Source: Macrostomum lignano (Eukaryota). Taken from it: 64,000 bases of DNA. The notes beneath the pieces were generated by a model that ran no database searches, was not told the origin of the DNA, and saw nothing but the letters and a program-made list of their open reading frames with translations. The DNA lies in the NCBI GenBank assembly GCA_002269645.1, contig NIVC01000324.1, positions 1 to 64,000 of the forward strand, given 5' to 3'. Position 1 is the stretch's first letter; every line of letters starts with the position of its first letter. Of the stretch, positions 26,601 through 32,600 are shown piece after piece. The translations under genes and the position numbers were made by a program.

Positions 26601-29600
26601 AACCGCCATTTGTGAAAGCCACAAAGGCCATAAACGAGAACGTCTCGCGTCGAAGACTGCGCCGTGTCTGATTGACAAGACTAATTATAGCAGGTGGAAA
26701 CTTTCAGGCCAGATCTTGGGGGACAGATGAGATGGAAGGGAATCAGCTTAACGTTGTATTTCGACGCTTGTTTAAGACGGCAGGAGAACTTTCCGTAGCA
26801 GCTTAGGCTCCTCCGCGTGGGGCTGCATCACAACAAATAGATAGATAGATAGATAGATAGATAGATAGATAGATAGATAGATAGATAGATAGATAGATAG
26901 ATAGATAGATAGATAGATAGATAGATAGATAGATGGATAGATAGATAAGTAGGTAGAGGTAGACAGACAGACAGACAGACAGACAGACAGACAGACAGAC
27001 AGACAGACAGACAGACAGACAGACAGACAGACAGACAGACAGACAGACAGACAGACAGACAGACAGACAGACAAACAGACAGACAGACAGACAGAAAGAC
27101 AGACATAACCCACTCCAAACGCCTCACCATCAGGTCCACCAGATGCCCAGTCCACTTGCAGCCCCTGGCGCAGTAGGAACATTTCACCTCGAGCACCTCT
27201 GTCTCGGATTGAAACGCACGGTCTTCCAGCACTCTGTCTTTGTCGATGCTGGTCTGGTCCAGGGGACACCTGGGCGAAACCACGGCGCAACAAATGGCCA
27301 CTGCCAACAAGGAGGTTCCTTCGGGAGCTACCTTTGCGGCGAAGGCCAAGGCCAAAATCCCGGGAGTGATCATCCAAGGTCGCGACCAGGACTGGACCAC
27401 TGATCAGCTTCAAAAAGTGTGGAGTGCTGTTGACTCCTATCTGATTGAGCTGACTGTCGAGGAGGGAATCTCCATCGGCATTGAGCGGATGGTGCTGCGA
27501 AGCACATTCGTTCTTATTGCTCCTAGCAGCGAGGAGGACGCTCGGCAGCTGCTCCAGCGGCTACCGACGGTCTCCTTGGATGCTGACCTTGGCGGAGCTC
27601 TTTTTCTTCGCGAGGGCCAGCGTCCAAAGACGATACCCTATGTGGTTTTCGTCCCTGCTAAGAGCACCGCAGCTGGACCAGACGTTATTCGCCGGGTCCT
27701 ACTGCGTCTGAACCCCGACCTCCCTGCTAGTGGACTGGTGTATCACCGCCGAGTCCGCAGGGGGGGGGAGACGGGCAACTCAATTGTCCTCGGCCTTTCC
27801 AGCACTTGGGCGAGTCGGTACCCTAATGGATCCTCTTTCCAGCTGGGTGCCCTCAAGCTCAAGATGCGCCGAGGAAAGTCTGCCAAAGGGAAGGCTACTG
27901 CCAACCCCGGCATCTCCGGCAAGAGCGGGGCGCAGTCTAAGGCCCAAGGAAAGGCGCAAGCCGATCCCAAAGCCAAAGCTGTGTCTCGCCCCTCTGCTAG
28001 CAGCAGTTCGGCGACCGCGGTAACGGCTCCGGCCAAGCCCCGGGAACCAAACCTGCCAGTCGGAGAAGGAGTTGAGGACGAGGCCGGGTCTTCGGAATCC
28101 GAGCTCTCCTCGGCCACCCTGGTGGGGTCTGAAGGTAAAGATGCAGGTGAGGAAGCTTCCTCCATCCTGTCATCGGAGCCTGAGGACTCTGCTGGGGGGG
28201 CCGGTGGGGGTGAGGAGGCCATGGACGTCGACCAACTCCCAGTCAAGCCCCAGCGGCCTGGGACGAGGACGATCTGTTGTCCAAGTCTCCTTGATGGCCC
28301 TGGGCTCTAGCCAGAAATTGCATTTAATACAGTATGACTAAGCTCCACGCTGCCAAAGGAGCGACATTCTGTCTGCAAATTAATTTACAGCATTGCGTAT
28401 CTGCGTCAGTAAATCTGATGAAGATTGCTGAGCTGTACAGGCCAGGCCTCATCCTGATCCAGGAACCCTGGATGCGCAACGGTAAGTTGCCCAACATTCC
28501 CTCTGGCTACTCTGATTTTTATGTGTGTGGCCCGGGGAACAGCCGCCCTAGAGCGGCTATCCTCGCTGCTAGCCATCTCCAGGCTTGGCTGAGGACTGAT
28601 CTCTCTGATGGAGACCTTTGCGTCATCCAATCTAATCATTTCTCTCCGCGTACGTGTCTTGTTGCCTCGGTTTATATCCCAGGCGACAGAGACCCTGCTC
28701 CTGAGAGTTTACTGCGCCTCGCGCAGTACTGCGAGTCCCAGAACGCTGAGCTGTGCTTAGGGGGCGACCTCAACGCGCACCACAAGCACTGGGGCAGCAA
28801 AGATACCAACACTAGAGGAGAGGAGCTTCTGGCCCTCATCTCTAACACAAACCTCATGCTCTGCAACCGCGGCAGCACTCCTACCTTTAATAATGGCAGA
28901 TGGACCGAGGTCCTCGACGCCACACTCGTTACCCCAAGACTCTTTGACAGAGTTGAGGAGTGGAGAGTCTGGTCTGAGGAGCCCTCCCTGTCTGACCACT
29001 GCTTTATCGCCTTTAACATCGCGGACACTAAAACCCAGTCTCCGATCACTTGGAGACGCAATATCCGCAACACTGATTGGGCGGCCTACAAGGCTGCCCT
29101 TGATCTGCACCTGCAGGAACTCACGGACTTACGTCCGATTGAGACCTGCGAGGATGTGGATCATATGGCTGAGACGCTGACAGGTTGCATTATTGAAGCA
29201 TAGGAAGCGGCTTGTCCTGCTCGCGCCTACAAAGGCAAGACCTCGGCGCCGTGGTGGAACCCGGAGCTGGGGAAACTCAGGCGGAAGGCCAAAAGCCTTC
29301 ATCGCCGTGCCATGAAGACCGGAAACCCGGAGGACATGGAGCTTTTCCGGCAAGCCTCCCGCAATTTCAAATCTGAAGTGCGCAAGGCCAAGGAATGTAA
29401 GTGGCGCCAATTCTGCAATGAATTGGATCAAGACAGACCTACTTCTAGGCTTGTCAAGGCCCTTACAATGGACAAAATGTCCAAATTAGCCATGATCAAA
29501 AAAGATGATGGCTCTCTTACTAAAGACCCTGAAGAAGTGCTTCAGCATATGCTTAGCACATTCTTCCCGAGGGTGCCTACTGCTAGACCGGAGCCCAACC

Positions 29601-32600
29601 ATTCGATGGATGGAGCCACCCTAGCGGCGGGCATTGTCACTGAAGACCTAATCGCTCGTGCGGTCAGAACCTTCAAACCCTTCAAATCTCCTGGACCTGA
29701 TGGTATCTACCCTGTTCTCCTTCGTGAAGCAGCCAAGATACCCTCGTTCCTGAGACTCACCCGCAATCTTATGCGGGCCTCTATCCAGCTGGGATACGTT
29801 CCCAAATGCTGGACTGAAGCTCGGGTAGTCTTTATTCCCAAACCTGGGAAGGGTGACTACCAAAGCGTCAAGGCCTTCCGGCCTATTAGCTTAACGTCAG
29901 CAATGCTTAAGCTCACTGAGAGGCTTATTCTCTGGCGGCTGCTGTCCTGCGAGCTGACAGCGATGCCCCTCAGCAATAATCAGCACGCCTTCCGTACCGG
30001 GAGGTCGACTGACAGCGCCCTGCATGCGATTGTCGAGAAGATTGAAAGGGCGGTACTGGGTGACGGTTACGCTCTGGCTCTCTTTCTTGACATTGTTGGC
30101 GCCTTCGACAACGTTATCTTTGAAGCGTTTCAGAGGGCCCTTCAAAATCGCAAAGCTCATGCTACCCTCATACGGTGGATCATGTACATGATCTCCAACC
30201 GTACGGTCACTGCCCAACTTCTTGGGCAAACTGCCTCCACCAGAGTCTGTAAGGGTGGACCCCAAGGCGGAGTCCTCACCCCGACGCTCTGGAACCTGGT
30301 CATGGACGCTCTTTTGAGTGACTCCCGACCCGACCCCGTCTTCAAAGTCGGGTATGCTGATGACGTCACGGCCATTGTGGCAGGACCGTCTCCCAGCACG
30401 CTCAGGGATCTGATGCAGAGCTTTATCCGCAAAGCAGAATCCTGGGCCAATGACAATGGTCTGGAACTCTCTGAGCCCAAAACCGTTGCCATTATGTTTA
30501 CCAGCAGACTACGCTGGAACATACGTCCTCTGCAGCTCTACGGCAGAGATATTGCCTTCGCGCACCAGACCAGATGTCTCGGGGTCATACTTGACCACCG
30601 GCTCAACTGGTCCTCCACGTGAAAGCAAAAGCCAAGCGTGCCTCAGCCATCCTGGCCCAGCTCCGACGAGCACTTGGCACTTCTTGGGGTCTATCCCCAA
30701 AGCGGCTTTGGTGGATCTATACTTCCGTAGTTAGACCTGCCATTACGTACGCCTCTGTTGTCTGGGTTAGCGCTACCCAGGTCAAAAGCCATGCAGACCT
30801 GCTCAACACGATCCAAGGCAGAGCGTGTAGGCTCATCTGCAACGCCACCAGGTCCACGCCCTTTGCTGGCATGGGGGCCTTCCTTAATCTTCCGCCTCTT
30901 GACCTCTTCATCAGGGGTGAGGCGGCTAGAACGACGCGGCGTCTAATTGATGCCGGCGTCAAATTCATTTACATGAGAGCACCTGCTAAGCGGAACCTTG
31001 TCCCGCATAGCGATCTGTGCCTCAACTTTCTCAACGAGTGTCAGGCCAATCGCGTCTTCACCGATGGCATTGCCTCAACGCTCAACCTGAGACAGCGCTA
31101 CTCCGTAGCTATCGACTCGCGCGATAACATCAATGACCAATGGAACCCTGGTGAGCTTCATTGCTACACCGACGGTTCTAAGCAGTCAGCCAACACCGGC
31201 TTTGGTGTTGGAATTTTTCTGAACGGGAGGGTCATCGCTACCCACGCTCAATACACTGGGGTCAACTCCAGTGTTTTCCAAAATGAAGTTCTGGCCATCA
31301 GCTCCTGCACTGCAGAGCTTCTCGCCACTGGCGTTACTGGTAAGAACATCATTTTCCATTCGGACAGCCAAGCTGCCTTGCACGCCATCAGTGGCTGCAG
31401 CACCAACTCTGCTACAGTCCTTGACTGTATCAAACTCCTCAATGTGTTGGGTTCCGCCAACAAAATTACCCTTAAGTGGGTTCCGGGGCATGTGGGGATC
31501 CGAGGAAATGAGTTGGCTGACACCCTTGCAAAAGTTGGTGCCTCCGGCTCGTCCCGATTCCTGGCTGTGTCATCGACTCGCGCTTCAAAGCGTGGATCAG
31601 GACTCAGCACCGCTCGACTTGGGCGAACCGCACGAACTGCAGGCAATCCAGAGGCGCTGTCCCTCAGCCCTCTCACCAGCTCCGGAAGCTCCTCTTGCGC
31701 CTCTCGCGCAGAGACATCCGGGCTGCCACCATGACCCTCTCTGGTCACGGCTGCTTCTCCAGGCACCAGTACCTGCAGGGCAACGCCACCAACGCCACCT
31801 GTAGTTTCTGCAACTCAGGTGACGAAACCGCTGAGCATTTCGTCAGCATCTGTCCCGCCTTCACGCGGGCCAGACTCACTTACCTCGGGCCACACACATC
31901 TATTACTGAAGCGTGCAAACCCGAAAACTTTAATCAGCTCATGCACTACCTTCGGGCCACCCGCAGGGCTGAACTCTCCTTTCCAGAGAGCACTATAGCT
32001 GCTGGCGACACTGGGGGACCTCCCTGGGCGGCGCCAACCCTCCGTCCATAGCGACGCGTCGGCCGTTCAGGGACTAGCGGAATGGGCGCCCGCGCCTTCC
32101 CGCTGTGTCCCCTCCGGGACAGCCCTGCAGCTAAGTCAAGTAAGTCAAGATAGATAGATAGATAGATAGATAGATAGATAGATAGATAGATAGATAGATG
32201 GATAGATAGATAAGTAGGTAGAGGTAGACAGACAGACAGACAGACAGACAGACAGACAGACAGACAGACAGACAGACAGACAGACAGACAGACAGACAGA
32301 CAGACAAACAGACAGACAGACAGACAGAAAGACAGACATAACCCACTCCAAACGCCTCACCATCAGGTCCACCAGATGCCCAGTCCACTTGCAGCCCCTG
32401 GCGCAGTAGGAACATTTCACCTCGAGCGCCTCTGTCTCGGATTGAAACGCACGGTCTTCCAGCACTCTGTCTTTGTCGATGCTGGTCTGGTCCAGGGGAC
32501 ACCTGGGCGACACTCTGACAGTTTTTAAAGTAGTGCATATTTGTTAAAATTTTGTAAAGCAGGAAGCAGCCAAAATAAAAAAGCAGCTCCCAGTTTTTCA

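Follow-up and report, generated by a model that had tools for sequence, protein, structure and literature searches.

We found a long interspersed nuclear element (LINE) in the genome of Macrostomum lignano that is bracketed by direct repeats of host target DNA, in which exon 2 of a TRAF gene is present on both sides of the insertion. The element lies in a window of 64,000 nucleotides (positions 1 to 64,000 of the forward strand of contig NIVC01000324.1, NCBI GenBank assembly GCA_002269645.1), to which all coordinates refer. The best reading of this arrangement, to which we assign a probability of about 0.7, is a target-primed insertion of the LINE in a GATA tract of the TRAF gene that was completed at a second break 360-440 bp away. 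The locus thus probably holds a genuine long target-site duplication (TSD), a new instance of a known, if uncommon, phenomenon. The features concerned, including the open reading frames (ORFs) of the element with their AP endonuclease (APE) and reverse transcriptase (RT) domains, are as follows.

26837-27277, plus strand: left target copy with (ATAG)24, variant units, (ACAG)27+5 and the exon-2 copy; the shared part measures 393-441 bp, by nick position in the GATA tract
27275-27277, plus strand: 3-nt microhomology (CGA) between target and LINE family; family contigs fit from 27275 in four of four runs
27278-28310, plus strand: ORF1, N-terminus cut by the 5' truncation, DUF4780-like by language-model features only
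28343-32051, plus strand: ORF2 with APE, RT, RNase H and a CCHC knuckle; stop at 29201-29203, frameshifts near 30613 and 31550
32068-32131, plus strand: conserved 3' stem-loop region, homologous in distant relatives, which marks the 3' end of the element
32132-32149, plus strand: tandem tail (TAAGTCAAG)2, ending in an AG that keeps the register of the ATAG tract
32150-32510, plus strand: right target copy, 361 bp, with (ATAG)12, variant units, (ACAG)19+5 and exon 2, from repeat comparison
17698-33491, minus strand: host TRAF gene (RING, TRAF zinc fingers, MATH), exons 33491-33202, 32514-32361, 25697-25377, 22616-22283 and 18026-17698
32361-32514, minus strand: functional TRAF exon 2, 154 nt, with acceptor, from gene model and paralog match
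27128-27277, minus strand: TRAF exon 2 duplicate (150 of its 154 nt) that retains the donor and has no acceptor, with Ala-to-Val at 27195, from repeat comparison and gene model

The two target copies share the same order of parts. On the left, (ATAG)24 from 26837 is followed by diagnostic variant units, (ACAG)27, ACAA, (ACAG)5 and unique sequence to 27277, and on the right, (ATAG)12 from 32150 is followed by the same variant units, (ACAG)19, ACAA, (ACAG)5 and unique sequence to 32510. The unit numbers thus differ between left and right in the ATAG tract (24 versus 12) and in the first ACAG run (27 versus 19). Counted from 32150, the right copy is 361 bp long, and the left copy measures 393 bp from the equivalent GATA unit or 441 bp from the start of the GATA tract; since microsatellite tracts slip, the original length of the duplication cannot be fixed. 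The unique parts of 172 bases (27106-27277 and 32339-32510) match at 99.4% (E 7e-86), which by itself excludes chance similarity, and their sole substitution is an A at 27195 on the left against a G at 32428 on the right. The identity of the copies ends precisely at 27277 and 32510, and the repeats abut both LINE junctions to the base, with an ambiguity limited to microhomologies of 2 nt at the tail side and 3 nt at the 5' side. An initial annotation, made from the sequence alone, had described a duplication of at least 360 bp around the LINE that copies a host exon, with a left copy of exon 2 short of 4 nt, one exon substitution and differing microsatellite unit numbers, and all of this is borne out by our comparison.

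The LINE itself (27278-32149, 4.87 kb) is of the APE-RT-RNase H type. Its ORF2 matches Exo_endo_phos_2, RVT_1 and RNase_H of Pfam above the cut-offs and carries a C-terminal CCHC knuckle, a motif also present in 96 of 108 long homologues, after which about 70 residues follow. Over RT and RNase H, the element shares 99% identity with a protein labelled Macrostomum lignano that remains in frame where the window copy is shifted; this protein therefore stems from another copy, or corrects an error. ORF1 resembles DUF4780 clusters in its language-model features (score 0.92), with no match in Pfam and no BLAST match to the DUF4780-bearing P0058, and a paralogous ORF1 reaches further towards the N-terminus. 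At the 5' junction, the family reads GAGGC-CGA-AACC and the target CTGGG-CGA-CACT. Because family contigs run on upstream of 27275 with non-window sequence in four of four runs (for 646 nt in one contig), position 27278 is a truncation point and not a natural 5' end, so that the LINE copy is 5'-truncated and joined to its target through the 3-nt microhomology.

The 3' end of the LINE is intact. Directly 3' of ORF2, the ten distant relatives that were aligned (L001, L008, L022, L023, L025, L028, L063, L065, L073 and L080; RT identity 35-41%) have kept a stem-loop with a short tandem tail behind it. The stem-loop has an internal loop, 94% of its cells are paired and four of its eight pairs show a compensatory change, in a structure derived from the same ten-relative alignment that was used to score covariation. 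This conserved stem-loop probably represents the RT recognition signal of the clade. An HDV-like (hepatitis delta virus-like) ribozyme at the 3' end is unsupported, with no Rfam match and single-sequence folding z values of only -1.1 and -1.4, and a 26-nt 3' motif has no exact match in the genome-contig or viral-contig collections. In another relative, L011, about five tandem copies of a unit of about 45 nt (5280-5510) lie in the 3' region before the tail. The initial placement of the junctions at the ends of the element thus holds for the 3' end, with its stem-loop and tail, and fails for the 5' end, upstream of which the family extends.

For a comparison with sequencing-run contigs, four runs (X14, X9, X5 and X2) from four studies were set against 27090-32175, with 32137-32175 skipped as repeat. 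Contigs over the exon come from X14 only, with none in X9, X5 and X2. In X14, the summed depth is 70,000-376,000 over the LINE, rising towards its 3' end, and 241 for the exon contig; according to a warning of the tool, summed contig depth is not a copy number. The LINE family is young, multi-copy and about 99% identical, and the depth profile points to hundreds of mostly 5'-truncated copies; within the 64-kb window, no second flanked copy of the family was found. Exactly before 32075, five X14 and three X9 contigs join other sequence (loose-end agreement 0.53 and 0.64), which suggests a short element or short interspersed element (SINE) that has no more than the final 75 nt in common with the LINE, or else a sharp truncation hotspot. 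In one X2 contig, the sequence immediately preceding 32100 is a (TGTC)n tract, which possibly marks another very short truncated copy beside a GACA-type microsatellite and a hint of target preference.

The LINE is oriented antisense to the TRAF gene, whose five-exon model, built with the right copy of exon 2, encodes 475 amino acids without an internal stop. In Pfam, the TRAF zinc fingers and MATH score above the cut-off and the RING-like start below it; the final exon matches TRAF structures in the PDB, and exon 2 is 65% identical to an M. lignano TRAF paralog over 51 amino acids. The protein of this locus is absent from the protein collection searched, where paralogs at 59-61% are nearest. 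Intron 3 (22629-25368) consists almost entirely of a 2.7-kb (TTAG)n array, which starts a few bases past the donor and stops about 12 nt before the next exon; the customary kind of pyrimidine tract is absent.

The left exon-2 copy lacks the first 4 nt of the exon together with the acceptor, and the gene can therefore still read normally. Most likely, judging from the splice signals, the extra copy is silent and skipped in splicing; the insertion allele would be tolerated because splicing can still use the right copy. Fifteen AG dinucleotides lie in the antisense LINE next to the left copy (27278-27500), two of which would keep the frame open if both exon-2 copies were spliced in, and the nearest AG would lead to a stop at codon 186. 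Less probably, a candidate cryptic acceptor at 27331 or 27391 could splice the copy in frame, in which case a TRAF protein with a tandemly repeated RING-to-zinc-finger segment would result.

The divergence of the two target copies can be set against the age of the LINE. Among the variant rows listed (40 of 100), the 4871-bp LINE shows about eight near-private substitution events, defined as sites at which at least 95% of the X14 depth differs from the window, with 27750-51 counted once. This private rate predicts 0.7-1.2 differences between the target copies, and one is observed, so that the divergence of the copies fits the age of the LINE itself. Both window copies carry an A at 27149 and 32382, where the sole X14 contig over the exon has a G, and therefore seem to stem from one haplotype. 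At 27195, the same contig has a G as in the right copy, which identifies the A of the left copy (Ala-to-Val) as the derived state. The data thus lean towards, and do not prove, an origin of both copies from a single haplotype.

Several observations weigh against a single insertion with a long TSD. About half of the repeat is microsatellite. Subgenome divergence is reported as 1.1% in coding sequence and 2.2% overall (PMC10733133), and divergence at this level predicts 3.1-6.3 differences between the copies, under which at most one difference has a probability of 0.18 or 0.013. At the near-private sites 27982, 29200 and 29575, the window letter occurs in no X14 contig listed, and at three others 156-250 of the X14 depth remains for a letter that is not given; some near-private sites may reflect mistakes of the assembly, and the age estimate is the weaker for it. 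Among the contigs listed, none bridges the exon-LINE junction and none spans the whole stretch, and the comparison stops short of the skipped tail region (32137-32175). The X14 exon contig represents another haplotype, continues into 449 non-LINE bases and ends at a microsatellite, and so cannot show absence of the LINE.

These gaps would leave room for an assembly chimera, in which the LINE was entered from one haplotype or subgenome and the LINE or the GATA tract was left via another, so that the exon became doubled. The three subgenomes of M. lignano differ by about 2%, S/L-chimeric scaffolds are reported to account for 36% of the length of one assembly (PMC10733133), the LINE family is multi-copy with near-identical members, and no record among the contigs listed spans the locus. 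We nevertheless regard a chimera as unlikely: it requires either that two junctions of this one family truly lie within 360-440 bp of each other or that the assembly was mis-joined twice, and the copies share the letter at 27149, unlike the X14 contig, and differ at only one site. The residual X14 depth at the three near-private sites also corresponds to about one locus and may stem from this very copy, its letter not being shown. A two-step origin is likewise improbable. Here, one family member would have inserted at the exon site and another in the GATA tract, on separate homeologs or alleles, with unequal crossing-over between the LINEs afterwards, or a break would have been repaired from a sister or homeolog by re-copying the tract. 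Several near-identical homeologs do coexist (PMC10733133), and the truncated copy beside the (TGTC)n tract in X2 would raise the odds if the tract preference is real. However, the left junction lies outside any microsatellite, and the copies look like one haplotype. The prior is also low under uniform targeting, at which two independent insertions within 440 bp have a probability of 0.0007-0.004 in a genome of about 750 Mb.

Microsatellites promote local duplications, and a tandem duplication could have come first, with the LINE inserted later at its junction. Such a LINE would have had to hit the exact junction base without a TSD of its own, and the copies diverge by just as much as the age of the LINE predicts, which makes this order of events very improbable. 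The intact 3' end, the 5' truncation with its 3-nt microhomology and the matching age, in turn, strengthen the reading as a long TSD.

In this target-primed insertion, the endonuclease would cut the minus strand of TRAF intron 2 within its (GATA)n tract, leaving a 3'-OH that would prime reverse transcription from the tail of the element, aided by the 2-nt match. Reverse transcription would then halt inside ORF1, and the cDNA end would anneal via CGA to a plus-strand 3' end located 360-440 bp rightward, 4 nt short of the acceptor end of exon 2. This plus-strand 3' end probably did not arise from a second cut by the element but from a nick of host origin, or from replication or repair, in which case unwinding would have reached it. 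Fill-in would copy the stretch between the two breaks onto both sides, and afterwards the GACA tracts would slip, the left exon copy would acquire one change and the LINE would decay. For long TSDs, the causes proposed are a nick that arises independently at a distance, during replication or repair, or strand displacement that proceeds to a natural nick (PMC5223499), and by analogy a distal host nick of this kind is the most likely source of the second break. The giant TSD with a first nick in the GATA tract, as initially proposed, is thus the best-supported reading.

A close counterpart is a de novo L1-mediated insertion in human CDKL5, in which a 119-bp TSD duplicates coding exon 3 with intronic flank (Hiatt et al. 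2021, PMC8087252); the same source reports TSDs of up to 323 bp. Both cases combine a 5'-truncated LINE with a TSD that copies a host coding exon. In CDKL5, however, the whole 35-bp exon was copied with both splice sites and is spliced in, which causes a frameshift and disease, whereas the Macrostomum repeat is three times longer, lost the acceptor, belongs to another clade and sits on an allele that persisted long enough to diverge. Retrotransposition as a route to exon duplication, which the initial annotation had suggested, was therefore already demonstrated with splicing in CDKL5, and here yields a copy without an acceptor.

Long duplications also flank natural insertions of Dualen-4b_cRei in Chlamydomonas reinhardtii, where TSD-like duplications above 50 bp are reported for more than half of de novo insertions, with a median of 900 bp (Lopez-Cortegano et al. 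2023, PMC9977147). There, long TSDs are family-wide and tentatively ascribed to a restriction-like endonuclease (RLE) together with APE (PMC9977147), whereas the Macrostomum LINE combines APE with RNase H and is known from one locus. Pfam gave only APE, RT and RNase H for this LINE and thus no sign of an RLE, for which no profile search was made, and the roughly 70 residues behind the CCHC knuckle leave little room for one; nothing found marks the element as a Dualen. Human L1 and zebrafish ZfL2-2 are APE-type LINEs like ours. For L1 in HeLa cells, TSDs above 100 bp are reported in at most 10% of events, and in cells deficient in nucleotide excision repair the median TSD is 1495 bp (Servant et al. 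2017, PMC5223499); exon duplication is among the outcomes that these authors name. One of 25 ZfL2-2 events in wild-type DT40 cells had a 1228-bp TSD (Suzuki et al. 2009, PMC2666801), and L1 TSDs in cultured cells reach several kb (PMC5223499). These were engineered elements in culture, unlike the Macrostomum insertion, a germline allele in a wild-derived genome. With the Dualen median, the L1 range and the ZfL2-2 event, the latter two from cultured cells, the view that the 126-bp TSD of R9 is exceptional appears overstated.

R9 of Adineta vaga, with this 126-bp TSD, and RTE-1 of C. elegans resemble the Macrostomum LINE as natural animal LINEs with TSDs above 100 bp; RTE-1 is inserted in an intron of prk-1, reportedly with a 200-bp flanking repeat that overlaps coding sequence. 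RTE-1 is a single-ORF element of another clade, and R9 is rDNA-specific and R2-like, with a restriction-like nuclease. An R9/R2-like identity of the Macrostomum LINE was rejected on account of its TRAF intron-exon target, the lack of an rRNA match in 26500-33600 and its APE-type nuclease.

By domain content, the LINE appears to fit the LOA/R1 group. DUF4780-type ORF1 proteins are linked to LOA, and RNase H is not unique to that clade. LOA-clade and R1-group elements (LOA, TRIM, Bilbo, Lian, CiLOA; PMC2790886) likewise have two ORFs, APE, RT, RNase H, CCHC and a short tandem tail, and RNase H is noted for known LOA elements in the same source. The only clear TSD in a distant relative of the Macrostomum LINE is of an ordinary length, 11 bp; it lies directly behind the tail of L063 and emerged from a short-repeat check of 22 relative loci. 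L022, L025 and L026, with both ends defined, show no TSD in this check, probably because their flanks come from different insertions. Among metagenome relatives (31-44% identity), a direct repeat straddling ORF2 was found in none of 80 loci, a sample in which only nine loci had at least 1500 bp upstream and at least 500 bp downstream, and which is biased against long straddling repeats because contigs from short reads end, or combine flanks, at repeats of this kind.

Further features of the window lie outside the insertion. At 25834-26117, 34848-35122, 40157-40367 and 10698-10874 lie copies of a dispersed repeat that reaches about 290 bp; they are 75-89% identical and occur in both orientations. 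On the plus strand, several long open frames follow one another in 1109-9736; they abound in Cys, Arg, Lys and His, space their cysteines in a recurring pattern and probably belong, as exons, to a single large secreted protein.

Long TSDs bear on the question of how the second strand comes to be broken when a LINE inserts. Most long TSDs come from cultured cells or from a few special clades, and a persisting germline case from another clade is therefore a useful data point. A literature search found no report of a long LINE TSD in this clade and host, and no title on this LINE family among Macrostomum non-LTR papers, most subscription journals and Repbase lying outside the search. The locus also illustrates how such alleles may survive: with the break 4 nt into the exon, the copy lost its acceptor. 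One locus leaves the overall picture unchanged, and its weight would be much greater if other copies of the family showed the same pattern. It is a tentative and improbable extension that the family, which has APE as its only nuclease and carries RNase H, regularly finishes its insertions at nicks several hundred bases distant, like Dualen without the second nuclease. If this were true, the family, with its apparent hundreds of young copies, would systematically duplicate host segments of exon size in Macrostomum.

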